Positions 1,216 through 22,359 of a DNA stretch of 23,345 bases are shown piece after piece. Each line of letters starts with the position of its first letter. The stretch's first letter is position 1. Source of the DNA: Elainellaceae cyanobacterium (GTDB taxonomy: Bacteria; Cyanobacteriota; Cyanobacteriia; CAZCXK01); contig JBNPEG010000217.1 in NCBI GenBank assembly GCA_051117555.1, forward strand, positions 1 to 23,345. The letters run 5' to 3'. The translations under genes were made by a program, and so were the position numbers. The notes beneath the pieces are model-generated. The model worked only from the letters and a program-made list of their open reading frames with translations. It was not told where the DNA came from and did no database searches.

Positions 1216-1235
1216 ACCTCCATCTACCCTTGGCT

Positions 1236-2198
1236 ATGGAATCTCGACCTAAAAAGCTGCTTGACCAAGTCCGCGACGCTATTCGCCTGAAACACTACTC
1301 CTACCGTACCGAGCAAACCTATGTCGGATGGATTCGTCGGTACATTCTCTTTCATAACAAGCGGCATCCTAAAGATATGGGGACACTAGAAGTTGAGGCG
1401 TTTCTAACTCACTTAGCAGTAGAAGGGAAAGTTGCCGCATCAACCCAAAATCAAGCTCTCTGCGCTATTTTATTCCTTTATAACAACGTTTTGAATCAAG
1501 AGCTAGGCAAATTAGATGCGGTTCGAGCAAAACGTTCAAAATATTTGCCAACCGTTTTAACTAAAGCAGAAGTTAGAGGCATCCTTCAGCATGTATCAGG
1601 GGTTCCGGGACTCGTCATCCAGGTTTTATATGGTAGCGGTTTGCGCCTTAGTGAAGGGCTAGGTCTTCGAATTAAGGATCTTGATTTTGCTCAACGTCAG
1701 ATTGTGGTGCGCGATACAAAAGGCAATGAAGACCGAGTCACTATGTTGCCGGATAGTTTAATTACTCCTCTGCAGCAACACCTTCAAAAAGTGAGACGGT
1801 TACATGAGTTGGACTTAGATCAAGGCTATGGTTCTGTTTATCTACCCTTTGCCTTAGAACGTAAATACCCCTATGCAGATCGAGCCTGGATCTGGCAATT
1901 TGTCGTTCCTTCCTCATTTCGATGTCGCGATCCTCATAGTGGCGTTATTCGTCGTCACCATCTCCATGAAAGTGGGGTACAGAAAACTTTAAAACAAGCT
2001 GTGCGTGTAGCTGGCATTGCAAAACGTGTTGGGTGCCATACATTTCGCCATAGTTTCGCCACCCACCTGCTGGAAGATGGCTATGACATTCGTACAGTAC
2101 AAGAACTGTTAGGCCATAAGGACGTCAAGACGACGATGATTTATACCCATGTGCTAAATCGAGGCGGACGGGGTGTGAGAAGTCCGTTGGATGGGTGA
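1236..2198 (+). CDS. intI: Integron integrase (tyrosine recombinase)
   Basis: N-terminal [22 protein letters not shown]...RHP and [16 protein letters not shown]; IntI-specific insertion [19 protein letters not shown]....DP.SG..RRHH; intact catalytic motifs [22 protein letters not shown] and TMIYTH. ATG 1236 is preferred over TTG 1230. Confidence 0.98.
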
Positions 2199-2867: not shown

Positions 2868-3082
2868 CTAGGGCGTTACGCTAAATGCATACTGATATAT
2901 AGCAACTACTACAATTTTTGGTAGAGGCGCGATCGCACTCGATTAGATCATGATCAAACTTGATTGAAGGCACCTATCAAATTTGCTATTTAATCAGAGC
3001 TTAAACGCAGCATAACCGTCATGCCTGCACCCTCTGCGCTAACGTTGACAAGACGAATTTAATCGTGGTGTAAGAGAACGGC

Positions 3083-3535
3083 ATGAGTAGTCAAGGCAAA
3101 AAGCGATTAAACGCATGTTTGGCGATCGCTAGCTATGCCGCTGGAGGAGGCGCTGCATCTGTGGCACCGACCCCCTGTATGGAAGTCCCCAAGCAGATTG
3201 TATTAACTGCATCAGACGTGATGATGTATGCGTCGATCTGGAAGATTTATTTTGAAGAAGACCTGACTCAGAAAGACATCCTTTCCATGCTGGCAGAGGT
3301 CGGAATCGTGTCTGTTGCAGCATTTGGGACTGCCTATCTAGTTGCCCGAGGCAGTACGGCATTGCTGCACGAAATCACTGATTGGATTGGTCCCATAGGA
3401 TGGGGCATGTCGGCGTTGATTTCGGGTTCTCTGGGAGGGCTGTCAGGCATGGCGTGGGCGTTCTATTGCGATCGCCTGTATGAACAACGCCATCTAGACT
3501 TGCAACACAAAAAAATACGAGTCAAGCCAACCTAG
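3083..3535 (+). CDS. Hypothetical membrane-associated protein, DUF697/YcjF-like
   Basis: 150 aa with Gly/Ala-rich hydrophobic helices (AAGGGAASVAPTP; IGPIGWGMSALISGSLGGLSG). Overlaps the convergent metK-like gene by 14 bp. Confidence 0.6.
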   Translation: MSSQGKKRLNACLAIASYAAGGGAASVAPTPCMEVPKQIVLTASDVMMYASIWKIYFEEDLTQKDILSMLAEVGIVSVAAFGTAYLVARGSTALLHEITDWIGPIGWGMSALISGSLGGLSGMAWAFYCDRLYEQRHLDLQHKKIRVKPT

Positions 3536-4709
3536 CAACCTTGTCTGTTTTTTCCCAGGGGAGATCCAGATCCATGCGGCCAACATGTCCATAAGCGGCC
3601 AGTTGGCGATAGAACCCGTTTTCGACCTTGGATGGTAGGTGTCGGAGATTAAACTGTCGGATGATCCCAGCGAGGCGAAAGTCAAAATGTTGGTTCAAGA
3701 GCGTCACAATATCATCTTCGGGAATGTTGCCGGTGCCGAAGGTTTCCACCTCGATGCTCACCGGACGCGCGAGCCCAATTGAGTAGCTGAGCTGGACTTC
3801 ACATTCATCCGCCAAGCCTGCGGCGACGACATTTTTAGCGGCATAGCGAGCGGCATAGGCTCCCACTCGGTCAATCCGCAGGGGATCTTTGCCACTCAAG
3901 GCTGCGCCGCTGTGCTTTGAATATTCGCCATAGGTATCGATGGCATTCTTGCGTCCGGTTAGCCCAGAGTGAACCGACGGACCTCCCATAATCACCAGCC
4001 CATCGGGGTTAATGAAAATACGAGTGTCGGCATCCGGTCGAACGGCTTCGCCCTCAAAGGCTGGATCAATGACCATGGCTCGAATGTCGTCTCGAAGCTG
4101 GTCTAAATCAGGCGTTGATTCGTCGAGTTGACTGGCGATAATGGCAATGCTGTGAATACGAACCGGCTGGCGATCGCGATATTCGATGCCGACCTGAGTT
4201 TTACCATCCGGTGTGAGATAGGGAAGGCGTTGATCCTCTTTGGAGTGCATCATTTGCCGCGCTAGCTTCCGCGCCAGCCAAATCGGGAGTGGCATTAGGG
4301 ATTCAGTCTGGTCGCACGCAAAGCCAAAGACAGTGGCCTGATTTTTGACGGGAATAGCTTCGATCTCGTCATCGCTGAGGGATGCTTCATCAAAGTCGTT
4401 ATCCCGCGTGGGTGGAAATTCTTCCAAGCTCGTCAAAATGCTGCAATCTCGACCGTTGAATCCGGCTTGGTCATAGCCTGCCTGCTCAATCACCCGACGC
4501 GCCACTCGAATAAAATCAACGTTGGCATTAGGCGAAAACCGAGCTGATAAGAAGACAATGGCCGTTGATACGGCGCACTCGGTCAGCACCCGAGCGTGAG
4601 GATCTTGCTGAAGAATGCGATCAACGATGGCATCACTAATCTGATCGCAGAGCTTATCCGGGTGGCCGGGGGTCACCGACTCAGACGTGAACATGAAATT
4701 TTTTCTCAT
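3522..4709 (-). CDS. metK: Methionine adenosyltransferase family protein, divergent paralog
   Basis: FTSESVTPGHPDK, PDGKTQ, GLTGRK, DTYG, SGKD..IDR, AYAARY, AAYGH and PWEKTD are present. The GAGDQG signature is replaced by PVKNQA. Confidence 0.9.
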   Translation of the reverse strand: MRKNFMFTSESVTPGHPDKLCDQISDAIVDRILQQDPHARVLTECAVSTAIVFLSARFSPNANVDFIRVARRVIEQAGYDQAGFNGRDCSILTSLEEFPPTRDNDFDEASLSDDEIEAIPVKNQATVFGFACDQTESLMPLPIWLARKLARQMMHSKEDQRLPYLTPDGKTQVGIEYRDRQPVRIHSIAIIASQLDESTPDLDQLRDDIRAMVIDPAFEGEAVRPDADTRIFINPDGLVIMGGPSVHSGLTGRKNAIDTYGEYSKHSGAALSGKDPLRIDRVGAYAARYAAKNVVAAGLADECEVQLSYSIGLARPVSIEVETFGTGNIPEDDIVTLLNQHFDFRLAGIIRQFNLRHLPSKVENGFYRQLAAYGHVGRMDLDLPWEKTDKVARLA

Positions 4710-7700
4710 GCCTGTGCTCCTTGCAGTTCACTGGGCTGATTGACTTGGAGGGCTTTGCTGCTTTCATTGACCACCAGCGGCAGGAGTGCAAAGGTTGCAA
4801 TCACCGCAGCATCAATGGGATCGATGGGCTGAAGTTTGAGCAGTCCCCGCAGTGGCGGCACCATCAGCGGCAGAATCTGAATTGCCAATGATCCGGCGAT
4901 CGCCCATTCCACATAGGGATTGCGAGGTAATGACTTGCCTCCAAAGAGACTCTGAGTCTGAGACCGACAGCTTAGCGTATGGAGAACTTGCCCGATCGTG
5001 AGGCTCATAAAGATGACGGTGCTCGACCTCTGGCTAATGCCGTAGCGCAGTAACCCATATCCGTAGGCAGCTAGCGCAGACACCGAAATCACAGCCGACT
5101 CAGCGGCGATCCGCTGGTAGTCATCGGGTTGAATAATCGGAGTGTCTGGGTCACGGGGAGGCTGCTCTAACACGTCGGGTTCGGGCGGTTCGAGGGCAAG
5201 GGCAAGCCCCGGAAAGATATCCGTCACCAGATTCAGCCAAAGAAGCTGCATGGCGTTGAGGGGTTCCCCGAGTCCGGCAGCAGTCGCAACAGTAGCCACC
5301 ATGATTTCGCTCATGTTAGTTGCCAAGAGAAAGTGAACGGACTTTCGGATGTTGCTGTAAATGGTTCTGCCTCGGCTGACCGCATCAATCATGGTTCGGA
5401 GGTCATCGTCGCCAATGACTACATCCGCAACTTCATGGACAACGCTAGTGCCGCCTGCGCCCATGGCAACGCCGACATTGGCAGCCTTCAGAGCAGGCGT
5501 GTCGTTGATGCCATCTCCCGTCATGGCGACGATTTTGCCTGCCTCTTGTAAGGCTTGCACGATTTGCAGCTTATCGGCGGGGCTGATGCGGGCAAAGATA
5601 TCTACTTTGTCAGAAAGGGCTTTGAGTTTTTCGGGGTCGAGCGTGGCTAAATCGGATGCGTCTAGGATTTCAAGATTGCGATCGCGACTCAGGCGGAGCT
5701 GTTTGCCGATCGCATAGGCCGTCGGGCTTTGGTCCCCCGTAACCATCACCGTATCAATTCCGGCGCGGTGAAAGTCGGCGATTAATTCGGCAACGCCGTC
5801 ACGAATCGGATCTGCCATGCCCGTTAGCCCTAGCCAGGTCAGATCGGTTTCGGGATGATTGTCGGACGAGTCGAGGTGCGTATAGGCAAACCCCAAGACT
5901 CGCAATGCCTGACCTGCCATGCGTTCGTTGGCAAGGATGATAGCCTGCCGATCGTCGTCGGTGAGGGGCATCACGTCACCGTCTTTCATCTGGAATGCAC
6001 ACTTTTCAAGGACTTCATCTGGGCTACCTTTGACCGCCACAAACGGGTGTTCTCCAGGTGATTTATGAAGGGTGGTCATGACGTTGCGATTGTCAGACCG
6101 GGGAAGGGTGTCTTGTCGGGGATATTGATGATGCAAATCGACGATGTCAATATCAGCGGCGATCGCCAGTTCAACGAGCGCATTTTCGGTCGATGATCCG
6201 CTAATGTCATAGGTTCCATCATCCTGTCGATTAACCTCGCTTTCATTGCAAAGGGCGCCAACTTGAATCAAGATCAGCAACTCCTTGCAGTCTTTCGGCT
6301 GAATCGGTTCGTCATCTTGGGAGACAAACTCGCGATCGCCAATCTGAACATCTCCCAACGCAATGTGAACGTGCTTGACTACCATGCGGTTTTGGGTGAT
6401 GGTGCCGGTTTTATCCATGCAAATAGTTTGCACGGAGCCGAGTGCTTCAACCGCATTTAGGCTACGCACCAGGATATTTTGCTTGCGCATATCTTGAATG
6501 CCCAGTGCCAAAATCGTCGTGGCGATCGTGGGCAACCCTTCTGGAACGGATGCGACGGCGAGAGAAATCGCGGTCTTGAGCATTTGCAAAAATCCGTATC
6601 CCCGGAGCAAACCAATGCCAAAGACGAGAGCACAGACTCCGCTGCCGATCGCCACAAGCTGGCTCCCCGTTTCGTCAAGCTGTCGTTGCAGAGGTGTCCC
6701 TTGGTCGGCAGCCTCGCCCACCATGGTTTGAATCTTGCCCATTTCGGTAAATCGGGCAGTGGCAACGACAACCCCTAACCCGCTTCCGCCTGTGACCAGC
6801 GTGCCTTTATAGACCATATTGGTGCGTTCTGCGAGGGGAATCGTATCGCCCTGTAAGACCTCAGGTGTTTTATCGACCGGAATACTTTCGCCGGTAAGAG
6901 CTGACTCATCAACGCTAAGCATATCGGTCGCAATCAGGCGAGCATCGGCTGGAACCTGGTTTCCCGATCGGAAAACGACGATGTCTCCAGGCACAATCTC
7001 GTCGCTCTCAACCTCGATGCGATCGCCATCACGAAACACAAGCGCACTGGGGCGATCGCCATCACGAAGCGAATGAATGATTTGCTCAGATTGGCTTTCG
7101 GTTACATAGCCAATGATGGCGTTAACGCCCACCACGCCCATGATAGTAACCGCATCTGCCAATCCTCCGGTGACAATTGAGAGTACTGCTGCTGCGCTGA
7201 GCAGGGCGACGGGTAGGCTATTAAACTGCTCTAGAATGATGGCCAGATCGGAGCGCGTGTCTGTTTCAGATAGACGATTGCTGCCGTAGCGATCGCACAA
7301 TTCTTCGACGAGTTCTGTGGAAAGCCCGCCTTCTTTATTGGTATTGAACTCTTTGAGCACTGACTCAATCGGCATTTTGTGCCATTCTTTGACCGGCTGT
7401 TCGTCACCCTCTTGCGGGTCTTGAGATTTGCGCGATTGGCGTGGGTGAGGCGGTTGAACAGGCGAGGACTCGTGCCGGGGATGCTCAGACTGTTGATACT
7501 GCTCAACGACCGTGGCGATCGCCTCTACAACATCATCATGGCTCAATTCGGGCGCAAACTTGACTAACACATTGCCCGTCAAACTACTGGCAGATACCTG
7601 ATTAATCATCCGTTGCTTAGACAGATGCTGTTCAAGATACTGCTCTAGCGAGTTAGATCGATGCAGTGCATCGACGTGATAGCGGGCTCTGCCTCGAACA

Positions 7701-7762
7701 GCGGTATGGATAGCGTGAATCACAGAATCTCCCTGAACCCTATGCATCGGAACGTGCATCAT
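4706..7762 (-). CDS. Cation-transporting P-type ATPase (P2A/SERCA-PacL-like) with N-terminal HMA2-like domain
   Basis: TGES, PEGL, DKTGT, KGSP, TGD and GDGIND motifs; TM5 TNMSE and TM6 WLNLVTD. The N-terminal HTAVRGRARY...VSASSLTGNVLVKF is HMA2-like. Confidence 0.95.
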   Translation of the reverse strand: MMHVPMHRVQGDSVIHAIHTAVRGRARYHVDALHRSNSLEQYLEQHLSKQRMINQVSASSLTGNVLVKFAPELSHDDVVEAIATVVEQYQQSEHPRHESSPVQPPHPRQSRKSQDPQEGDEQPVKEWHKMPIESVLKEFNTNKEGGLSTELVEELCDRYGSNRLSETDTRSDLAIILEQFNSLPVALLSAAAVLSIVTGGLADAVTIMGVVGVNAIIGYVTESQSEQIIHSLRDGDRPSALVFRDGDRIEVESDEIVPGDIVVFRSGNQVPADARLIATDMLSVDESALTGESIPVDKTPEVLQGDTIPLAERTNMVYKGTLVTGGSGLGVVVATARFTEMGKIQTMVGEAADQGTPLQRQLDETGSQLVAIGSGVCALVFGIGLLRGYGFLQMLKTAISLAVASVPEGLPTIATTILALGIQDMRKQNILVRSLNAVEALGSVQTICMDKTGTITQNRMVVKHVHIALGDVQIGDREFVSQDDEPIQPKDCKELLILIQVGALCNESEVNRQDDGTYDISGSSTENALVELAIAADIDIVDLHHQYPRQDTLPRSDNRNVMTTLHKSPGEHPFVAVKGSPDEVLEKCAFQMKDGDVMPLTDDDRQAIILANERMAGQALRVLGFAYTHLDSSDNHPETDLTWLGLTGMADPIRDGVAELIADFHRAGIDTVMVTGDQSPTAYAIGKQLRLSRDRNLEILDASDLATLDPEKLKALSDKVDIFARISPADKLQIVQALQEAGKIVAMTGDGINDTPALKAANVGVAMGAGGTSVVHEVADVVIGDDDLRTMIDAVSRGRTIYSNIRKSVHFLLATNMSEIMVATVATAAGLGEPLNAMQLLWLNLVTDIFPGLALALEPPEPDVLEQPPRDPDTPIIQPDDYQRIAAESAVISVSALAAYGYGLLRYGISQRSSTVIFMSLTIGQVLHTLSCRSQTQSLFGGKSLPRNPYVEWAIAGSLAIQILPLMVPPLRGLLKLQPIDPIDAAVIATFALLPLVVNESSKALQVNQPSELQGAQA

Positions 7763-8342
7763 TCGTTTGCGGAGACTCTGCTGCGGGTAGTTGAGGCTGA
7801 GATTCTGCCGTAGAAGGATGGAGCTTCAAAAAGGTATCAAATGAATACCAAGCGAGGGTATACCACGGAATATCGTCAAATTGAAGTCCTTTCACCACCA
7901 ACTGTCGCAGCGCTAGCCCGCTTAGGCCAATTGGAACCAGCATTCGCAGATCCACCAGTCCGTTGGTGAGCCAACCCACTTGAGCATTCACTTCAGAGGT
8001 GGTGTTCATCAGTTCACCCGCTAGTTGCGATCGCCCTTCTGAAACGTGCGATCGCCTGCGAGTTGACACATCGGCAGAATGTGGGCTAGGAGATTGAGAC
8101 GGGGTATCCATCTCAGCCTGAGCTTCTGCCAGTAAATCTTCGATTTGCTCTCCAGCTTCTGCTACCGCTTCTTTACATCGTTCAGAAAAGGCAATCCCTT
8201 CTTTAATAGCAGAACGAACTGCTGGTTGGTTAATAGCGGCTGTAAGGGGCAGAAAGACAGGCGCCGTGAGTATAGCCGCGAGTCCTTCAACCATCTCTGA
8301 TACTCTAATCTCACCCACGTCGAAATCTGAATCAGATGCCAT
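7740..8342 (-). CDS. DUF5132-like protein with hydrophobic C-terminus typical of HMA2-cluster proteins
   Basis: GLAAILTAPVFLP...RSAIKEGI....KEAVAEAGEQIEDLLAEAQAE, then VDLRMLVPIGL...IPWYTLAWY. Confidence 0.75.
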   Translation of the reverse strand: MASDSDFDVGEIRVSEMVEGLAAILTAPVFLPLTAAINQPAVRSAIKEGIAFSERCKEAVAEAGEQIEDLLAEAQAEMDTPSQSPSPHSADVSTRRRSHVSEGRSQLAGELMNTTSEVNAQVGWLTNGLVDLRMLVPIGLSGLALRQLVVKGLQFDDIPWYTLAWYSFDTFLKLHPSTAESQPQLPAAESPQTNDARSDA

Positions 8343-8432
8343 CAGGGTATCCTCCGGTGTAGTTTGACGGGCTCGCTGTTTACACTAATTGAGAGTGCGA
8401 TCGCTCCACATCATTCGTCGGGTGGAGTTTTA

Positions 8433-8466
8433 GCATTCTGCATTCTGCCGTGCATTCTGCCGTGCA
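8433..8466. repeat. Short tandem repeat
   Basis: TGCATTCTGCCG x2 (8439-8462) with partial flanking copies. Confidence 0.7.
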
Positions 8467-8546
8467 ATATAGCCATCAACGCTAGCTGCGATGTAGAGAA
8501 TCACCGTGGTCATCAAAATGCCTCATCAGCACCCCTAATCACCGAC

Positions 8547-10178
8547 CTAAAATTCTTCATCCCACTCAATACTGGGGGTGGGATGGCAATGGTGCCCGTT
8601 TGGGGAGTCTGAATTTTGGGTTTCTTCATCCAAAACGTCAATCACGCGATTATAGATGGCATCTGCTTCGCTGTATGAATTGCCAATACTGGTCAAGCCA
8701 AGCTTGCCAAACTCAGATAGGCAGCCAATCAGGTGAAATGCCGTTCCAACTTCGGTAGCACTATTAAAATGCAGACGATGGTGGGCAATGATATCCATCA
8801 AGTCGTTGGGGAGTAGCCCTTTGTAGTGGGGTTTTTGCAAATTGTCAGACGCGATGTAGTATTTTGGATTGCCTTCGTGGTCGTAAAACAGCCCAGTTTC
8901 TGTCTCGTAGTGTCCGTTTGTGAGCAACCTCAGCGTCATAAAGGGATGAGTGGTGCCCCCCTTGCGGAGATTAATTTCGATCGCCTGGATATCCCATTCC
9001 TTCTCAGGATCGCCACGATGTTCGGGATGATGAACCGCGATGAAATCAGCGCTAAATCGCTCCAGGGCTCCCTTCTTTGCCAGATTTTCGCCAATCCGAT
9101 ATCCCCATTCTTGAAGGCGGAGCCGGTATGCTTCATCCGCAGGAAATTTACATCCTAAAAAGATTTGCCCGTCTGGGCCGCCGAGAATTTGGTCATGAGT
9201 CGAAAGAATATCGACCTCTCCCGACGGCTTAATGCACACTTGGACGCTGGGCGATCGCTTCTCCTCTCCTTCGATAAACGCCTCTGCGATCGCGCCCAGT
9301 TCAGGAATGCGGCTACTAAAGTTAGCCCACGTTTCATTGGGAGCCTGAAAGCGTAGCTGATGAAAGCTTCGATAGATAGCGCCAATGCGCTGAGCGTGGG
9401 ACGCAGTTCCGGGTGCCATATCGTGGAGGTGATCCAGCTTTAAAAGCGCATTCCCTTCCCCTGAAAATCCTTCGTTGAGCTTGATCACGATCCGCTGGAG
9501 ATGCGGCTGCCGTTCCCAAAGTTCTGCGGCGACGACGGCTAGATCTTCCGCGTTGTAGACCAAACTGCTGCCATCAGGATGAGGCACGTCACACTCCGCA
9601 AAAATTTGGCGACTGCCGCTTTTGGTTCCCCAATGTAGCAACTCTGGGTCAAGCCCAAACAGAGGCATCTCCAGCCGCACTGCCAACTCTCGCTCTAGAG
9701 GAGTTGAGTTAAAGCACGTCATGTAGGACTGCCCAGGACGAAGCGCCTGTCGAATTCGCTCCATCAGCCGAGGACGCTCTAAAATCTTTTGGGTCAGCGG
9801 CTTAAGCGACGAATCGTAGGCACACAGCAGCAGCAGGCGATCGCGCGCATGGGAAAATGGCACCCCCGGCAAGAGCTGCAAATAATAATCGACCACAGAG
9901 GGATGAATCGGCTGAGAGGTCACATAAATTAACCGAGTTCGAGGATTGCGCAGCCGAATCACAGAAAACAGGAGCCGTTCTTCATAGTGGTGAATGCCTT
10001 GAATCTTGGCGAGTTCTCGCTGGTCGAGGCTCAACGATGGAATCACCAGAATGTCATACACGCCGCGATCGAAAATATCAATCGACTGCCAGCGATCGCA
10101 CAATTGAGCCTGAAGCTGATGGAACTGCTCAGATTGATAGTCAGTGTGTGCTAATGACGGCAATATTAACTCCCGCAT
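8547..10178 (-). CDS. ATP-grasp peptide ligase PGM1-related protein
   Basis: 543 aa with HYEERLLF, KSGSRQIF, VIKLNEGFSGEGNA, SPSVQ, STHDQIL and EINLRKGGTTHP, the ATP-grasp motifs of the PGM1/BesA-like family. Confidence 0.85.
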   Translation of the reverse strand: MRELILPSLAHTDYQSEQFHQLQAQLCDRWQSIDIFDRGVYDILVIPSLSLDQRELAKIQGIHHYEERLLFSVIRLRNPRTRLIYVTSQPIHPSVVDYYLQLLPGVPFSHARDRLLLLCAYDSSLKPLTQKILERPRLMERIRQALRPGQSYMTCFNSTPLERELAVRLEMPLFGLDPELLHWGTKSGSRQIFAECDVPHPDGSSLVYNAEDLAVVAAELWERQPHLQRIVIKLNEGFSGEGNALLKLDHLHDMAPGTASHAQRIGAIYRSFHQLRFQAPNETWANFSSRIPELGAIAEAFIEGEEKRSPSVQVCIKPSGEVDILSTHDQILGGPDGQIFLGCKFPADEAYRLRLQEWGYRIGENLAKKGALERFSADFIAVHHPEHRGDPEKEWDIQAIEINLRKGGTTHPFMTLRLLTNGHYETETGLFYDHEGNPKYYIASDNLQKPHYKGLLPNDLMDIIAHHRLHFNSATEVGTAFHLIGCLSEFGKLGLTSIGNSYSEADAIYNRVIDVLDEETQNSDSPNGHHCHPTPSIEWDEEF

Positions 10179-14277: not shown

Positions 14278-15576
14278 ATGCAAGCTTGGTTTCCCCGTTG
14301 TCAGAGTGCGATCGCCCGCTGTTTTTTACTCATTGGATGGTTCGGACTCTTGACCGCTAGTTCTGGATGTCTTGGCTCGTCTCGGCATGAGGCTCAAGCT
14401 CAGTCCGAGCAGCGTGAGGAAGTACCCGGTGATCAGTCTGTTTTGGTGCAAACGGCGATCGCCCAGCCCGACTCCCTAGATAATGTTTTAGAGTACACCG
14501 GCACGACAGCGCCCATTCAGCAAGTCAATCTACGAGCCCGCGTCGAGGGTCAACTGGTAAGCTTGGCAGTTAATGTTGGAGATTTTGTCGAAGCGGGGCA
14601 GACCCTAGGACGTATCGACGATGACCTGCTGATCACTGATGTAAACGAAGCACAGGCAGAATTGGCAGCTCTACAATCTGAGGTGGCACAAACGCAAGCG
14701 CAAGTTGATAACGCTCAAGCCCTGGTCGAACAGGCGCGGGTTGAATACCAGCAAGCGCAAGCCGATAACGCCCGCCTCCAGTCGCTTGCAGCAGATGGCG
14801 CAGTGTCTCAGCAGCAGGCAGATTTGGCTGAAACGGCTATGAAAACGGCTGAGCAATCTCTGCGTTCGGCACAGCAAGGCGTGCAAACTCAACAGCAAGC
14901 CGTAGTTGCAGCACAGGGTCGAGTGAATGCCCAGCAAGCCGTAGTAGCGCAGACAGAAGAGCAGCGGTCTTACACCCTGTTAAAATCGCCGATTACCGGA
15001 TCAATCCTGGAGCGGATCACTGAAGCCGGGAGCATGCTTCAGCCGGGAGACGAAATCGTGCGACTTGGAGACTTTAGCACGGTCAAAATCATCGTGCAGG
15101 CGTCAGAACTAGATTTGGCTCAGATTCGAGTCGGCCAGTCAGTGGATGTGAGCTTTGACGCATTTCCGGGGCGATCGTTTACGGGCGAAGTCGCACGGAT
15201 TTCTCCGGCTGCTGACCCGGTCGCTCGTCTAGTGCCTGTTGAGGTGACGTTGCCTAACCCCAATGGTCAGATTGGCAGCGGATTATTGGCGCGGGTTAAT
15301 TTTGCGCCCCGTGCATCCCAACAAGTGGTGATTCCAGACAGTGCTCTCGAAACCGGAACAAACTCGGAAACACCCACCCTATTTGTTATCGAAGGCAGCG
15401 GCGATAATGCCAAAGTAATCGCCCGTCAAGTTCAACTGGGCGATCGCGCGAATGGCAGAATTGAAATTCGCGCTGGGTTAGAACCGGGTGAACCGTTTGT
15501 GATCAAAAGCAGTGCCCCCTTAGAAGATGGACAGACTGTGAAGTTAAGTATTTTGTCAGAAACCCCATCCGAGTAA
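14278..15576 (+). CDS. RND efflux periplasmic adaptor (membrane fusion protein)
   Basis: Lipobox-like SSGC, lipoyl halves (VEGQLVSLAVNVGDFVEAGQ; SPITG), long coiled-coil hairpin, beta-barrel and GLEPGE terminus. Confidence 0.93.
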   Translation: MQAWFPRCQSAIARCFLLIGWFGLLTASSGCLGSSRHEAQAQSEQREEVPGDQSVLVQTAIAQPDSLDNVLEYTGTTAPIQQVNLRARVEGQLVSLAVNVGDFVEAGQTLGRIDDDLLITDVNEAQAELAALQSEVAQTQAQVDNAQALVEQARVEYQQAQADNARLQSLAADGAVSQQQADLAETAMKTAEQSLRSAQQGVQTQQQAVVAAQGRVNAQQAVVAQTEEQRSYTLLKSPITGSILERITEAGSMLQPGDEIVRLGDFSTVKIIVQASELDLAQIRVGQSVDVSFDAFPGRSFTGEVARISPAADPVARLVPVEVTLPNPNGQIGSGLLARVNFAPRASQQVVIPDSALETGTNSETPTLFVIEGSGDNAKVIARQVQLGDRANGRIEIRAGLEPGEPFVIKSSAPLEDGQTVKLSILSETPSE

Positions 15577-15586
15577 GGCGGCTACT

Positions 15587-18500
15587 ATGCAAAACGCGAC
15601 ACGATCAGGATTCAGCATTAGCCGAATCGCGATTCGGCGGCACATCGGCACTCTGATGCTCACCATTGCTCTCCTAGTGCTTGGGCTCTTTTTCGTCACG
15701 CAGCTTTCGGTTGACTTGCTGCCATCCATCACCTATCCGCGCATTGGGTTGCGAGTCGCTGCGCCTGGCATTTCGCCCGAAGTCGCCGTTGATGAGGTTA
15801 CGCGTCCTCTAGAAGAGGCTCTGTCTGCCACCGAAGGAGTTGAGCAAATCTTTTCTCAAACTCGTGACGGACGCCTTAGCATCGACTTATATTTTGAACC
15901 CGGCGGCAATATCGACCAGGCGCTCAATGATGCGACCGCCGCCTTAAACCGTGCCCGTGACCAGCTTCCTGACACAATTGATACACCGCGCCTGTTTAAA
16001 TTTGACCCGTCTCAGCTTCCGGTTTATGAATTTGCGCTCACGTCACAAACGCTTCAAGGCGTGGATTTGCGGATTTTTGCTGACGAAGAACTGGGACGAG
16101 AACTGACCGTCGTTCCAGGTGTCGCCAGCGTGGATGTGTCAGGAGGGTTACAGGAAGAGGTATTAGTCAAGGTCGATCTAAATCGCTTGCAAGCCTCAAG
16201 TGTTGGGCTTGTTGACCTGCTAGACCAGCTAGACGCTCGCAACCAAGACATTGCAGGTGGCCGCATTCGCGGAGACGATTCTGAATCGCTAACGCGCACC
16301 CTGGGACGATTTCAAGAGGCTGATGAGGTTCGAGATCTCTCGTTTGATGTCGGCGACGATACCACAGCGCGTCAGGTGAAGCTGCGTGACTTTGCTGACG
16401 TCATCGACGGCACCGAAGAACAGCGCGTCTTCGTCACGCTCAATCGGCAGCCTGCCGTTAAGGTGAGCGTTCAAAAGCAGCCAGATGCTAATACGATTAC
16501 TGTGATTAATGCCGTCAAGCGGCGCATGGAGATGATGCGCGACTCGGGGGTCTTTCCAGATGACCTGATCCTGACGGTAACGCTAGATGAGTCAATTTTT
16601 ATTCGCGATGCCATTCGCAATGTGGCCGTTTCGGGTCTAACGGGGGCAACTCTGGCAGCGATCGCCGTCCTCCTTTTCCTAGGGTCACTCCGGCAAACCT
16701 TTATCATCGTTACTGCCATTCCGTTGGCTACACTGGCGGCCATCATGATGATGTGGCTGTTTGGCTTATCGCTCAACGTGTTTACCCTGGGCGGGCTTGC
16801 CCTTGGCGTCGGGATTGTCGTTGATAATTCCATCGTCATGCTGGAGAACATTGCCAGCGGAATCAGTACAGCCGCGCAAGATCATGCCAATGGCAATGGA
16901 ACAAGCGATATCGGCAACAGCCCTAGTGACGCGAATGGCAATGAGTTGATTCACCCGCCCCCTGAGGCTCTGATTCATCAGGCAGAACAAAGCAGCCAGC
17001 AAGTCGAATCGGCATTGCTGGCCTCGACGAGCACTAACTTGGTGGCAGTGATTCCGTTTCTGATGATTGGTGGATTCATCTCACTCCTGTTTAACGAATT
17101 GATTTTGGCGGTTAGTTTTTCGATTGCGGCATCGCTGCTAGTAGCGCTGACCGTGGTGCCCATGTTGGCGTCTCGGCTGCTGGCGATTCCTAAATCAAGC
17201 CACATCCACCGATGGAAGCCGCTGAGATGGTTTCAGCAACGCGTCAAATCTGGGACCTCGACCTATGCTCGTTTTCTAGATAAGGTACTCCGCCGCCGAC
17301 TTCTCACAATCGCGATCGCCTTCGTGATTCTGGGAGGTGGCAGCGTCCTCATGATTGGGCAGATTCCCCAAGAAATCTTGCCCGAAATTGACACTGGGCT
17401 TGCCGAACTTCGAGTGCAATTTCCACCTGGAACGCCTCTAGCCGACAACCGCACCGTCATGACATACATTGACGAACTCCTGATGGAACAGCCCGAATCT
17501 GAGTACGTGTTTACCACGGCTGGGGGCTCCCTCTTTGGCAGCAGTACGAGTGAGAATACGCTCCGAGGACGCAGCACTATCACCCTAAAACCGAGTGCCA
17601 ATGTTGAGGAATTCACTGACCGATTAAACCAGCAGGTCAATCAGTTTAATCTGGTTGATTCTCGTATTCGCGCCTATCCCGATTCGGTTCGAGGGCTGAT
17701 CTTGAATAATTCCCCGGTTCGCGGAGACATTGACGTAGGGCTCCAGGGATCAAATACTGAAACGCTTCAGCAGGCAGGGCTTCAAGTTCTTAGCGCCCTC
17801 GATGAACAAGCCTCGTTAGCACGATACAGCCCGGATGCAGAAGAACCCCAGACCGAGGTGCAGATTATTCCTGACTGGGAACGGCTCTCGTTCCTTGACT
17901 TGACGACTGCTGATATCGGAAACACGATTCAAACGGCTCTCTTGGGATCAGTGCCCACTCAGCTTCAGCGGGGCGATCGCCTCGTTGATGTGCGAGTCCA
18001 GCTCGATCGAGATGCCATCGAGCAACCCGATCAACTCCAGTCGCTGCCGTTGTTTGTCGATGATAATAAGCGAGTGCGCTTGGGAGATGTTGCAACCATT
18101 CAAGGCGGGAACGCACCGGGTGAAATTCAGCGCATTAATCAGCGACAGGTCTATCTTATCGAAGGCGATTTAAACGACGGAGCGAACCTCAGCCAAGCGC
18201 TGGAAGAAGTAGATCAAATCCTAGCAGGGCTAGAACTGCCGGACGGCGTAAGTCGTCTGCCGAGTTATGCAGAGGCGAGCAATCAGCAGATTCAATCGTC
18301 CCTAATTATTCTAGGCGGGCTAGCAGCGTTCCTTGTTTTCGTGGTAATGGCCGTTCAATATAATTCTCTGATTGATCCCCTCGTCATTATTTTGACGGTT
18401 CCCCTCGCCCTAGCAGGCGGCATATTTGGGCTCTTCGTCACACAAACAGCACTCGGTGCAACCGTTATTATTGGTGCCGTTTTGCTAGTTGGAATCGTGG

Positions 18501-18874
18501 TCAACAACGCCATCATCATGGTGGAATTAGCAAACCAGATCCGCTCAGCAGAACAGGTCAATCACCGAACCGCCATCCTGTTAGCAGCTCCTCAACGGCT
18601 TCGCCCCATCTTGATGACGACCGTAACGACTGTGCTGGGATTATTTCCGTTAGCATTGGGACTCGGAGATGGCTCAGAATTCTTACAACCTCTTGGAATT
18701 GTCGTGTTCTCAGGACTGTCGCTAGCCACCCTGCTAACGTTAATCATCATTCCTTGCTTTTATACTCTGCTGCACGACCTGCTCGAACCGACGGAAAATA
18801 AATGGCAACGCTCCCGTCTCCGTCCCCATCTGTCTACAGCCTCAGACGAAGACACAATCCGACAGAGAAATTAA
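15587..18874 (+). CDS. RND efflux permease (AcrB/AcrD/AcrF family)
   Basis: 1095 aa with VDLLPSI, GIVVDNSIVMLEN, GIVVNNAI, RLRPILMT and a 12-TM layout. Confidence 0.95.
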   Translation: MQNATRSGFSISRIAIRRHIGTLMLTIALLVLGLFFVTQLSVDLLPSITYPRIGLRVAAPGISPEVAVDEVTRPLEEALSATEGVEQIFSQTRDGRLSIDLYFEPGGNIDQALNDATAALNRARDQLPDTIDTPRLFKFDPSQLPVYEFALTSQTLQGVDLRIFADEELGRELTVVPGVASVDVSGGLQEEVLVKVDLNRLQASSVGLVDLLDQLDARNQDIAGGRIRGDDSESLTRTLGRFQEADEVRDLSFDVGDDTTARQVKLRDFADVIDGTEEQRVFVTLNRQPAVKVSVQKQPDANTITVINAVKRRMEMMRDSGVFPDDLILTVTLDESIFIRDAIRNVAVSGLTGATLAAIAVLLFLGSLRQTFIIVTAIPLATLAAIMMMWLFGLSLNVFTLGGLALGVGIVVDNSIVMLENIASGISTAAQDHANGNGTSDIGNSPSDANGNELIHPPPEALIHQAEQSSQQVESALLASTSTNLVAVIPFLMIGGFISLLFNELILAVSFSIAASLLVALTVVPMLASRLLAIPKSSHIHRWKPLRWFQQRVKSGTSTYARFLDKVLRRRLLTIAIAFVILGGGSVLMIGQIPQEILPEIDTGLAELRVQFPPGTPLADNRTVMTYIDELLMEQPESEYVFTTAGGSLFGSSTSENTLRGRSTITLKPSANVEEFTDRLNQQVNQFNLVDSRIRAYPDSVRGLILNNSPVRGDIDVGLQGSNTETLQQAGLQVLSALDEQASLARYSPDAEEPQTEVQIIPDWERLSFLDLTTADIGNTIQTALLGSVPTQLQRGDRLVDVRVQLDRDAIEQPDQLQSLPLFVDDNKRVRLGDVATIQGGNAPGEIQRINQRQVYLIEGDLNDGANLSQALEEVDQILAGLELPDGVSRLPSYAEASNQQIQSSLIILGGLAAFLVFVVMAVQYNSLIDPLVIILTVPLALAGGIFGLFVTQTALGATVIIGAVLLVGIVVNNAIIMVELANQIRSAEQVNHRTAILLAAPQRLRPILMTTVTTVLGLFPLALGLGDGSEFLQPLGIVVFSGLSLATLLTLIIIPCFYTLLHDLLEPTENKWQRSRLRPHLSTASDEDTIRQRN

Positions 18875-20101: not shown

Positions 20102-20707
20102 ATGCCTTCTACCGTTAAGCCGTCGACCGAGCCTGCGTGGAATCAGATGCCGTTGGTAGTCCAACCTGATCCATCGCAATTAGACAATATCAAAGCTCAG
20201 CTTGATCTCGTCTTGCTGGCTTTGGAAGCATTGGCTGGCATTGGTTCAGATGCAATTCTTCAAGCTGCTGCTGATTTACAATTGACTGACGTGGTCGCTG
20301 ATCGAGTCTCTCTATGGCGCCTAAGACAAGCAAGCCCACTTCGGAAAGGGCAGGGGCGAAAACGTTTGGACGTGGAAGAGGCGCGATCGCTCGTGCTGAT
20401 TAGTTGTCACTTGGCAAAACAACATCGAGAATTGATTCGCCGAGCCGTTGCCCTGCTAGAGCAGTTGACAGAACAAGGAGAACCGCCTCATCAAGCGGCT
20501 CTTTTGGGAGATTATCTAGACAACTTCAGCAACACGTATCAAGAAAGAATGGATCATGGAGATGAAACCCCAATCGCTCAGTTAACTCATTTAGCGCTTA
20601 AGCTACTGATTGACTTGTTGTTTTACAGCGCGCCGAACGGCTCTCGACGGTTGTGGCTTGCATTACTCGATCGAGCTGCTCTACCGGCCTCTGCTCGTTC
20701 GTATTAA
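20102..20707 (+). CDS. DUF3038 domain protein
   Basis: IKAQLDLVLLALEAL, DRVSLWRLRQASPLRK, LLGDYLDNF and LLIDLLFYS; adjacent to a DUF4335 gene, as usual in cyanobacteria. Confidence 0.88.
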   Translation: MPSTVKPSTEPAWNQMPLVVQPDPSQLDNIKAQLDLVLLALEALAGIGSDAILQAAADLQLTDVVADRVSLWRLRQASPLRKGQGRKRLDVEEARSLVLISCHLAKQHRELIRRAVALLEQLTEQGEPPHQAALLGDYLDNFSNTYQERMDHGDETPIAQLTHLALKLLIDLLFYSAPNGSRRLWLALLDRAALPASARSY

Positions 20708-20859
20708 ACCGCATCTAAGTCCAAGACTGAAGTTCTGGCTGTGAAAAAACTCCAAATTTTCAGTTGGCTTTGGCATCGTGCGATCGCCACCTCTATATTT
20801 ATCTCCTTGTTCAACCGCTATAGATTACGCAGAGATTAATTATTCCTCCTCGATCAACT

Positions 20860-22359
20860 ATGTCTATATCCATTCTGCGTCGATATACCCCATCTACCTG
20901 CACTCTAGAAATCATGGCGAAAGAGTCGCCCCTTTCTCGTTGGACTGGGCGACCGGCGCTTAAGCAGGTCCGGTTTCAGCTTAGTTTTGACGGTCCTCAC
21001 TTACCCACCGATCGGCATGTGGCAGTCCGTGGCGATCGCGAGCAGCTTGATCGGTTGTGTGACATTGTTGAAGAGTATGTCCAAGGACTTCTTAGGCAAT
21101 CGCCCGCTCAGTTTGACACGCTGCTGTCGTTAACCTCGACTGAGCCCAGAGCGTTTTCCCGAGCGGATACCCACGGTTCTCACAATGGTCAGCTTGGCGA
21201 TCGCCCACTCAATGAAATCTCTCAGTCTGCCGGTATGTCGCTTCAGCCCGTAGGCGCTCTAAAACATAGCCTCTCACTGGGGGAACTGGCCACCTCCGAA
21301 TCAGGTTCATCGGTGACGCTAAGCACCTTGGAATTATTTGATCTGGCGAATGCTCTCGACGAATATCAGGCTGATACCTTGTCGTTGCCTGCGTTCGAGC
21401 ATGCTCGTCAGCACTATTTTTCCAATACCTGGTTGCGGGTTGCGGCAGTCTTGCTGCTGACCGTAGGCGTCACTGCAACCGTCACTCAGTTTCTGACTAA
21501 TTCGTCTACGACGAGCCTGCAAACAGCCGATTCTGTGGATAATTCGGACGGCCAATCGGAGGACGACATTGCGCGGTCGACGAACGACGATATCACGTCT
21601 GACGACACTCTATCTGAATCGGCAGAAGTCAATCTTGGCTTAGAGCAGACTCCATCAGGCGAAGCGGCACCGTTTTCAGATCTTGCGCAGCCAACGCGCC
21701 CCAGTCCGTCGCCCAATTCAGCCCCCCCCGAAAATCGTCGGTCTCAGCAGCGTCAACCGTCTAATAGAGGGCCGTCACCCAATGGAAGTCAGCAACCGAC
21801 CAATCCAGTGCCATCCATTCCTCCACAACTGACTGCCATCCCTCCAGTCGAGCGGAGCGATCGCGCGAGTTCTCCCTCTCCCTCCGGTGATATGGCCTCA
21901 AATGATACGGCATCGTCGGCTGCTGAATCAGCGCCCCTGCCATCTTCCGCAGCAATGAGCCGTCAGCCATCAGATCCTGGCGGAATCAGCAGTTCTACCC
22001 CACAACCCGAATCCAGAATTTCGCGCTCCGCTACAGACGGAATGTCGGATCAGGCTGCACTGGGAGATCCCAATACAATTCCTCAGCTTGAAGAAATCCG
22101 AGACTATTTTCGCGATCGCTGGCAGCCTCCCGAAAGTCTGACCCGCAATCTAGAATACCGTCTGATGCTCAATGCCGATGGGTCAATCGAACGAGTCGTT
22201 CCCCTCGGCCCCACCGCCGAAGACTATATCGATCGTACCGAGATGCCTTTGAGAGATGAGCCATTTGTCTCCCGGATTCAGGGCGGGCACATGCCCCAGA
22301 TTCGGCTAATTCTAGGCGCAGACGGCGACGTTCAAGCCTTCTTAGAATACCTAAACTAG
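20860..22359 (+). CDS. DUF4335 domain protein (single TM, Pro/Ser-rich linker, TonB-C-like terminus)
   Basis: RRYTPSTCTLEI..SPLSRW, LFDLANALDEY, TM segment and YFRDRWQPP..L...LEYRL. Confidence 0.85.
   Translation: MSISILRRYTPSTCTLEIMAKESPLSRWTGRPALKQVRFQLSFDGPHLPTDRHVAVRGDREQLDRLCDIVEEYVQGLLRQSPAQFDTLLSLTSTEPRAFSRADTHGSHNGQLGDRPLNEISQSAGMSLQPVGALKHSLSLGELATSESGSSVTLSTLELFDLANALDEYQADTLSLPAFEHARQHYFSNTWLRVAAVLLLTVGVTATVTQFLTNSSTTSLQTADSVDNSDGQSEDDIARSTNDDITSDDTLSESAEVNLGLEQTPSGEAAPFSDLAQPTRPSPSPNSAPPENRRSQQRQPSNRGPSPNGSQQPTNPVPSIPPQLTAIPPVERSDRASSPSPSGDMASNDTASSAAESAPLPSSAAMSRQPSDPGGISSSTPQPESRISRSATDGMSDQAALGDPNTIPQLEEIRDYFRDRWQPPESLTRNLEYRLMLNADGSIERVVPLGPTAEDYIDRTEMPLRDEPFVSRIQGGHMPQIRLILGADGDVQAFLEYLN

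Follow-up and report, generated by a model that had tools for sequence, protein, structure and literature searches.

A MetK-like protein with a rebuilt methionine site, encoded beside a CoBaHMA-fused Ca2+-type P-type ATPase in many bacterial phyla

Why would a cyanobacterium that already encodes a housekeeping S-adenosylmethionine (SAM) synthetase, MetK, keep a second MetK-like gene with an altered substrate site, and why would that gene lie at the end of an operon for an ion pump? The question is raised by contig JBNPEG010000217.1 of an Elainellaceae cyanobacterium (assembly GCA_051117555.1), a stretch of 23,345 nucleotides that was analyzed over its whole length and is called the window here. 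As judged from its sequence, the protein encoded at positions 3522 to 4709 keeps the Mg-triphosphate side of the MetK active site and has lost the methionine side, and its gene is co-inherited, often with translational coupling, with that of a Ca2+-type P-type ATPase. We tentatively favor the reading that it serves as an accessory of this pump that binds or hydrolyzes triphosphate, and that it is not a SAM synthetase.

3522..4709, minus strand: MetK-like protein of 395 amino acids, H238/R269-type, characterized from its open reading frame (ORF), Pfam and NCBIfam matches, site tables, and AlphaFold2 and Foldseek results

A MetK fold with a two-sided active site

Is this protein a MetK at all? 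The minus-strand ORF of 395 codons runs from an ATG through its stop, and the plus-strand frame at the same position is riddled with stops. An initial annotation, made from the sequence alone, had placed a full-length MetK paralog at this position; the ORF, the domain matches and the predicted structure bear this out, and what that reading had missed is the strand. All three MetK domains (PF00438, PF02772 and PF02773) match the protein with E values of 1e-32 to 1.5e-55, and among solved structures the bacterial MetKs come closest to it (345 bits to PDB 7r3b). The AlphaFold2 model, built with 92 relatives as input, has a predicted local distance difference test score (pLDDT) of 89.6 and a predicted template modeling score (pTM) of 0.90, the sole weak stretch being residues 250 to 275, a glycine-rich loop adjoining the triphosphate site. 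When this model was used as a Foldseek query, the top matches were MetK structures, with template modeling scores of 0.88 to 0.94 and 41 to 44% identity to the solved MetKs. The NCBIfam model for metK, TIGR01034, gives 379.5 bits against a cut-off of 309.4, and annotation pipelines therefore label the protein a methionine adenosyltransferase (MAT); two more distant members of its clade score below that cut-off, at 307.1 and 262.4 bits. A search of a plasmid collection returned only a canonical metK at 49% identity, and a search of the ESM Atlas with the MetK-like protein returned ordinary MetK clusters only.

The active site has two sides, and they have fared differently. To define the residue columns, the protein was aligned with 120 homologues and with the canonical MetK of the same genome, and site tables were then drawn up; residue numbers follow Escherichia coli MetK, and the columns themselves come from the alignment. 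The window protein keeps H14, D16, K17, E42, D163, K165, R244, K245, K265 and D271, among them all eight Mg2+/triphosphate ligands (H14, D16, K17, K165, R244, K245, K265 and D271). Its changes are E55 to R, Q98 to F, S99 to P, the motif GAGDQG to PVKNQA (and with it D118 to N), R229 and F230 to L and V, D238 to H, and K269 to R. Every one of these retained and changed residues had been called in the initial annotation, and each call was reproduced; to them we add the clade-wide changes T227 to D, G253 to E, G258 to S and F262 to L. All four of E55, Q98, D118 and D238 are thus replaced, D118 of GAGDQG being a residue that we take to have a role in the MetK substrate site. In the alignment with 120 homologues, neither the GAGDQG motif nor the canonical sequence of the gating loop is recognizable any longer. 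The SAM contacts of E. coli MAT are given, in the legend of Fig. 5 of PMC8727953, as E55, Q98, I102, H14, D163, R229, F230 and D238; four of these eight (E55, Q98, R229 and D238) are replaced across the clade.

How general is the pattern? An alignment of 92 pump-linked members from many phyla, on which the counts below are based, shows D16, K17, E42, R244, K245, D249 and K265 in every sequence, H14 and D271 in 91 each, and D163 in 89, so that seven of the eight Mg2+/triphosphate ligands (all except K165) are kept in 91 or 92 of 92 members. The new residues are nearly as uniform. H238, R269 and L262 are found in 92/92, S258 in 89, R55 in 85, E253 in 80 and N118 in 68, and position 98 is L, M or F in 77. 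The same residue pattern is common to the 81 clade members of a first site table and to the 92 diverse members of the second. By comparison, among 107 other representatives, of which about 16 are again H-type sequences, the canonical E55, Q98, D118 and D238 are present in 79 to 86. Chance or decay would not account for this pattern, because new residues would not become fixed so widely in a dead gene that drifts. The clade offers a clean natural case of a split bifunctional active site, in which the triphosphate half has been frozen and the methionine half has been rebuilt and then refrozen across many phyla.

A distinct branch beside the housekeeping metK

Do these substitutions define a clade? 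In a midpoint-rooted FastTree phylogeny of 184 sequences (5 of 189 were dropped for gaps), the 94 sequences with H at position 238 all fall inside one clade of 95 tips with a support of 0.997, and the single remaining tip of that clade carries N at this position. Defined by H238, R269, L262 and R or H at position 55, the H238/R269-type thus forms one branch apart from canonical MetK, and within it the window protein belongs to a monophyletic group of 79 tips (support, 0.935) with short branches. Membership is broad. More than 120 cyanobacterial proteins are 71 to 98% identical to the window protein, all of them named methionine adenosyltransferase by their sources, and a genome scan found members at 63 to 71% identity in Nitrospirota (Thermodesulfovibrionales), Brocadia, Loosdrechtia, NC10, Syntrophales and other Desulfobacterota, and Entotheonellaceae. 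More distant members carrying the same signature were recovered by a search of 1.84 billion representatives, and the clade as a whole ranges over cyanobacteria, Nitrospirota, anammox Planctomycetes, NC10, Desulfobacterota, Proteobacteria and Acidobacteriota.

Selection on the gene is purifying. Against its two closest relatives, the ratio of nonsynonymous to synonymous substitution rates (dN/dS) is 0.071 (dS, 0.575) and 0.098 (dS, 0.475), with dS saturated for more distant pairs. Together with the residue tables, these values show that the MetK-like site is constrained and rebuilt and has not decayed. The initial annotation had proposed asking whether the substitutions define a clade and had argued against simple decay of the gene; the answer to the former is a single well-supported branch, and the low dN/dS ratios and fixed new residues agree with the latter. 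Nor are the changes peculiar to one strain under relaxed selection, as they are shared across phyla by a gene under purifying selection.

Several observations bear on how the gene has traveled. GC content at third codon positions is 0.56 in the MetK-like gene versus 0.41 in the genome's canonical metK; a tyrosine recombinase gene (Phage_integrase and Phage_int_SAM_4 domains) lies at window positions 1230 to 2198 on the plus strand, 1.3 kb past the 3' end of the operon, and a homologue of it was matched once among 80 related loci; and one relative of the MetK-like gene is carried on a Nostoc plasmid (locus L036). The nearby integrase, the compositional contrast and the plasmid copy fit a patchy, horizontally spread distribution.

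Does the gene supply the cell with SAM? The same genome encodes a canonical metK on contig C73 (522 bits to TIGR01034; a 420-amino-acid ORF at positions 1486 to 2748 of locus L001). When 200 genomes were sampled from the phylum, the paralog, taken at 71% identity or more, was found in 12 in addition to the window's own, and all 13 of these cyanobacterial carriers show two MetK matches. Likewise, all five of the non-cyanobacterial carriers tested hold a canonical copy scoring 464 to 618 bits together with a paralog scoring 262 to 382 bits. The canonical metK that the initial annotation had expected elsewhere in the genome is thus found here and in the other carriers, and since it stands alongside in every carrier examined, the paralog is not the housekeeping source of SAM. 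Genomes with the MetK-like gene would seem, from their annotation, to hold two SAM synthetases; one of the two copies almost certainly does something else.

An operon with a Ca2+-type pump

What else is in the operon? The MetK-like gene is the last of a block of three genes, which runs from a DUF5132 membrane protein through a CoBaHMA-fused Ca2+-type P-type ATPase to the MetK-like gene.

7740..8342, minus strand: DUF5132 membrane protein of 200 amino acids, first gene of the three-gene block, identified with Pfam

4706..7762, minus strand: P2A-type P-type ATPase with an N-terminal CoBaHMA/HMA_2 domain, longest ORF of 1018 amino acids, characterized from Pfam, NCBIfam and structure matches

Read directly from the sequence, the TGA stop of the pump shares bases with the ATG of the MetK-like gene in an ATGA overlap. 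Translation of the pump probably begins at a GTG at 7723, with GGGAG ahead of it, about 17 nucleotides past the stop of the DUF5132 gene.

The initial annotation had treated the gene alone; its residue reading stands, and what escaped it is a near-obligate pairing with the pump. To count this pairing, we defined the H238/R269 group by its residues first and tallied the linkage afterwards. In 76 of 80 related loci, the gene immediately upstream, in the same orientation, encodes the ATPase; in three of the other four, the MetK-like gene sits at a contig edge, and only one (L073) is a true exception. The same contig in the genome of that exception does carry, at a distance of about 26 kb, a pump orthologue (G206 C3, 361633 to 364758), which matches in two pieces (residues 7 to 477 and 482 to 1005) some 170 nucleotides apart and may be interrupted. 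A second scan, with an alignment of distant members as the query, gave 79 further locus identifiers, 4 of them on contigs already seen, and here the ATPase is upstream in 49/49 non-canonical loci (45 new contigs). Paracoccaceae, Geminicoccaceae, Methylocystis, Nitrosospira, Chromatiaceae, Acidobacteriota and Binatia are among the taxa with such linked loci. H238 was read in 44 of the 49, and two of the other five show H in alignment A2. The same scan provides an internal control, since none of its 30 canonical (D238) metK loci has a P-type ATPase nearby. Pooled over both scans, linkage to the pump holds in 121 of 122 informative loci. The distance from the ATPase stop to the MetK-like start is -3 nucleotides, the ATGA overlap, in 26 of 118 loci and no more than 467 nucleotides in all 118; the MetK-like gene is thus co-inherited with the pump and often translationally coupled to it.

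The rest of the block is conserved to varying degrees. HMA_2 is present at the N terminus of 107 of 114 linked ATPases, the seven misses being contig-edge or ORF-calling cases, and a DUF5132 protein precedes the pump in 44/80 loci by tblastn and 48/81 by clustering. Taken from the side of the pump, 13 of the 15 cyanobacterial genomes with a strong pump orthologue have an adjoining MetK-like gene. The two pumps without one (L162 on G002:C6 and L163 on G101:C50) are orthologues at 57 and 52% identity, with no MetK-like gene in the 9 to 11 kb covered, and the G101 pump also lacks the CoBaHMA N terminus. That the pump can stand alone and the MetK-like gene practically never does fits an accessory role for the latter. 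Over 3321 pairs, the pairwise identities of the two proteins correlate with r = 0.90.

Which ion does the pump move? Its Pfam domains are E1-E2_ATPase, Cation_ATPase_N and Cation_ATPase_C, and hydrolase, preceded by the N-terminal HMA_2 at 32.5 bits (cut-off, 30). Among NCBIfam models the best matches are to the PMR1-type (616.6 bits; cut-off, 798.3) and SERCA-type (554.2 bits; cut-off, 703.4) ATPases, both below cut-off, and the solved structures closest to it are those of Listeria LMCA1 (486 bits) and SPCA1 (461 bits). In the linked pumps, DKTGT and PEGLP are each found in 82/82, the N and E of transmembrane helix 5 (TM5) likewise in 82/82 each, and the N and D of TM6 in 81/82 each. The PEGLP, TM5 and TM6 positions are ones that we take to be the Ca2+ ligands of SERCA, and from these residues it is likely that the pump transports Ca2+ (or Ca2+/Mn2+). 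No Rfam family matched anywhere in the window at E <= 1, so no riboswitch hints at the ion.

The N-terminal domain and the DUF5132 protein may belong together. H6, R12 and R14 of the CoBaHMA domain are invariant in 76 pump N termini. The DUF5132 protein matches the Pfam DUF5132 helix at 39.9 bits, and its C-terminal hairpin matches the second half of HMA_2 (profile positions 88 to 150) at 20 bits, which is below cut-off. The HMA_2 profile is thus split over two adjacent genes, with positions 9 to 74 in the pump N terminus (window 7517 to 7714) and positions 87 to 150, the membrane hairpin, in the DUF5132 protein (7740 to 8342); because both parts occur in one chain elsewhere, the split may mean that the DUF5132 protein acts together with the pump's CoBaHMA domain. 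No HMA_2 match was found in this genome outside the operon, which means that no CoBaHMA-type calcyanin was found and that the block is not tied to one here.

Other neighbors were considered as members of the block, one of them convergent with the MetK-like gene.

3083..3535, plus strand: predicted membrane protein of 150 amino acids with no family match, block membership uncertain

The 3' ends of this gene and the MetK-like gene share 14 nucleotides. Of 80 other loci, 10, all of them cyanobacterial, have a homologue of the 150-amino-acid protein next to the MetK-like gene, and the protein has no Pfam, NCBIfam or PADLOC match; it is a possible accessory gene of the block. In Nitrospirota, anammox and deltaproteobacterial loci (L022, L050, L057, L059, L066, L077, L081 and similar ones), a repetitive 230-amino-acid protein with no family match is encoded, and in 11 loci it is placed between the DUF5132 genes and the pump; these blocks also hold stand-alone CoBaHMA proteins of 92 amino acids, a DUF3562 protein and a zinc-ribbon protein. 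Excluded from the module were the ATP-grasp gene at 8547 to 10178, an M48 peptidase gene and the other genes of the window, which have homologues in none of the 80 related loci. The ATP-grasp protein, encoded on the minus strand just upstream of the operon, has a PGM1 C-terminal domain and a weak BesA-like match (127 bits; cut-off, 750). Farther along, on the plus strand at 14278 to 18874 and 20102 to 22359, lie an HlyD-type adaptor with an AcrB-type resistance-nodulation-division (RND) transporter and a DUF3038/DUF4335 pair, all unrelated to the finding. A promoter and terminator scan of positions 3000 to 8700 gave fewer sites than shuffled controls, and PADLOC gave no match for the MetK-like, pump or DUF5132 proteins.

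A possible role at the pump and its relation to known systems

What, then, would a MetK-like protein do for a Ca2+ pump? The residues that hold methionine are replaced and the triphosphate half is kept, and for this reason the protein should not make SAM at a useful rate. Taylor and Markham (J Biol Chem 1999) reportedly found that the D118N and D238N substitutions of E. coli MetK cut SAM synthesis about 1000-fold, with tripolyphosphatase activity much less affected, and from these effects we infer that SAM synthesis has been lost here. We posit that the H238/R269-type is a distinct and ancient MetK-fold subfamily, kept as an extra copy beside the housekeeping metK. Its pocket, presumably made more basic by R55, H238 and R269, would bind, and possibly hydrolyze, inorganic tripolyphosphate, short polyphosphate or a nucleotide triphosphate. 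This cytosolic protein may in turn couple its ligand to the activity or regulation of the pump, presumably through contact and in that direction, acting as a local enzyme or else as a regulator responsive to the energy or phosphate state of the cell. The proposal builds on what was observed directly, namely, an intact MetK fold, the pattern of kept and replaced residues, a single clade under purifying selection, a canonical metK in addition and linkage to the pump gene. The suspicion of the initial annotation that this is probably not a standard SAM synthetase is supported, on sequence evidence, by the clade, the second metK and the purifying selection; the near-obligate pairing with a CoBaHMA-ATPase narrows the alternative functions that it had offered (a different acceptor or nucleotide triphosphate, a tripolyphosphatase, or a nucleotide-sensing regulator).

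Several points weigh against a triphosphate-binding pump accessory. The protein passes TIGR01034, which is an equivalog model. The triphosphate ligand K165 is kept in only 79 of 92 members and replaced in 13. F230, the adenine-stacking residue, is kept in 56/92 (and lost in 36, including the window protein), D118 survives in 13/92, and H14 and D163 are near-universal, so that some adenosine binding or adenosyl transfer may remain in the clade. The pump is present without the MetK-like protein in at least two genomes. Gene adjacency is a sign of shared function, not of contact, and shared ancestry alone may account for the correlation between the pairwise identities of the two proteins. Apparent ATPase/MetK-like fusions, seen in 5 of 122 long matches (P0285, P0286, P0318, P0401 and P0403), were rejected as singletons with truncated halves; they look like frameshifts or mis-assemblies and lend no Rosetta-stone support.

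Could the protein still make SAM? A genuine but divergent SAM synthetase, supplying SAM locally or under special conditions and linked to the pump through a need for K+/Mg2+ or through co-regulation, would explain why the fold is complete, the triphosphate site is intact and the TIGR01034 score lies above its cut-off, and functional divergent MAT paralogs are known in eukaryotes (MATX; PMC3923989). Set against this are the replacement of E55, Q98, D118 and D238 together, the canonical metK present in every carrier examined, and the cost, reportedly about 1000-fold, of D118N or D238N singly; we regard this explanation as highly improbable. Somewhat better placed, and still unlikely, is an adenosyltransferase with a new acceptor, possibly anionic or water, that would cut ATP at C5' and release tripolyphosphate in some connection with the pump. 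H14, which assists C5'-O5' cleavage in MetK, is kept in 91/92, D163 in 89/92 and F230 in 56/92, and the pocket residues have been swapped for a new conserved set and not for random ones. However, both F230 and R229 vary within the clade and both are lost here, which is odd for a site that holds adenosine; the canonical gating-loop sequence is not recognizable; and the conserved block encodes no candidate acceptor pathway.

Is any ligand needed at all? A silent pseudoenzyme, acting as a structural or scaffold subunit that, for example, oligomerizes pumps through the MetK dimer or tetramer with no small-molecule ligand, would suit the tight operon linkage across phyla and an intact fold whose substrate pocket is lost, and dead paralogs that act as regulators are known, for example, the S-adenosylmethionine decarboxylase (AdoMetDC) prozyme (PMC6221367). 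A ligand-free scaffold, however, has no need of Mg2+ and triphosphate ligands, and these are invariant in 91 or 92 of 92 members over many phyla; we consider it the least unlikely of the alternatives, though a minority view. At the other extreme, the protein could be an active tripolyphosphate or polyphosphate enzyme docked on the Ca2+ pump, where it would make tripolyphosphate from ATP or cleave tripolyphosphate or short polyphosphate and, with the basic CoBaHMA domain and DUF5132, form an unrecognized machine that couples Ca2+ transport to polyphosphate chemistry. We offer this as a doubtful speculation, to be placed a little behind the new-acceptor adenosyltransferase. If true, it would give cyanobacteria, Nitrospirota, anammox bacteria and others a route to Ca-polyphosphate or Ca-carbonate storage bodies.

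Returning to the pump accessory, why does it matter? The operon points to an uncharacterized subfamily of Ca2+-type P-type ATPases with a CoBaHMA domain, a soluble partner of enzyme fold and a DUF5132 membrane protein, and with it the finding widens to a cross-phylum module of pump and MetK-like partner. In the literature consulted, CoBaHMA and DUF5132 have been treated solely in connection with intracellular carbonate formation in cyanobacteria; for that field the operon would be a widespread, testable module with culturable carriers such as Trichormus variabilis ATCC 29413 and Chlorogloeopsis fritschii PCC 6912.

How does the system compare with known ones? Set beside bacterial MetK (TIGR01034; PDB 7r3b and 1fug/1rg9), the protein has the same three-domain fold and the same Mg-triphosphate residues, but E55, Q98, D118, D238 and K269 have become R, F/L, N, H and R, and the GAGDQG motif and gating loop are lost. 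In the genomes examined its gene is never the sole copy, and it lies in a P-type ATPase operon, in contrast to 0/30 canonical loci. With the defining methionine-site residues gone, the protein should not carry the label of a methionine adenosyltransferase.

The pump likewise has close relatives and clear distinctions. With the P2A Ca2+ pumps (Listeria LMCA1, SPCA1/PMR1 and SERCA) it shares DKTGT, PEGLP and the TM5/TM6 residues, yet it falls under both Ca2+-ATPase equivalog cut-offs and has the extra CoBaHMA domain. Pumps under the control of accessory proteins are known, as with phospholamban, FXYD and KdpC; unlike small membrane regulators of pumps, the MetK-like partner is an enzyme fold of 395 amino acids. 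HMA_2 (PF19991) is the CoBaHMA domain of the literature on calcyanin and intracellular CaCO3 biomineralization (bioRxiv 10.1101/2024.07.07.602159), and the domain has been described with a His before strand beta1 and conserved basic residues (PMC8890360), with which the invariant His and two Arg of the pump agree. In Microcystis, according to the same bioRxiv text, a DUF5132 protein is encoded beside ccyA; a DUF5132 neighbor is thus common to both loci, but no CoBaHMA-type calcyanin was found in the window's genome. The CoBaHMA/DUF5132 papers covered mention no MetK homologue and contain 0 occurrences of "adenosylmethionine," and no report of a MetK paralog paired with a P-type ATPase was found, in a search that did not take in the paper on the CoBaHMA family (Gaschignard et al. 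2024, doi 10.1002/prot.26668), which may describe this pump architecture or its neighbors.

Further parallels are the trypanosome AdoMetDC prozyme and MATX, which are likewise paralogs of SAM-pathway enzymes retained for a changed role. Even so, the prozyme teams up with the active enzyme that it is paralogous to, and MATX still works as a MAT, whereas the partner of the MetK-like protein is an ion pump, and half of its MetK active site remains.

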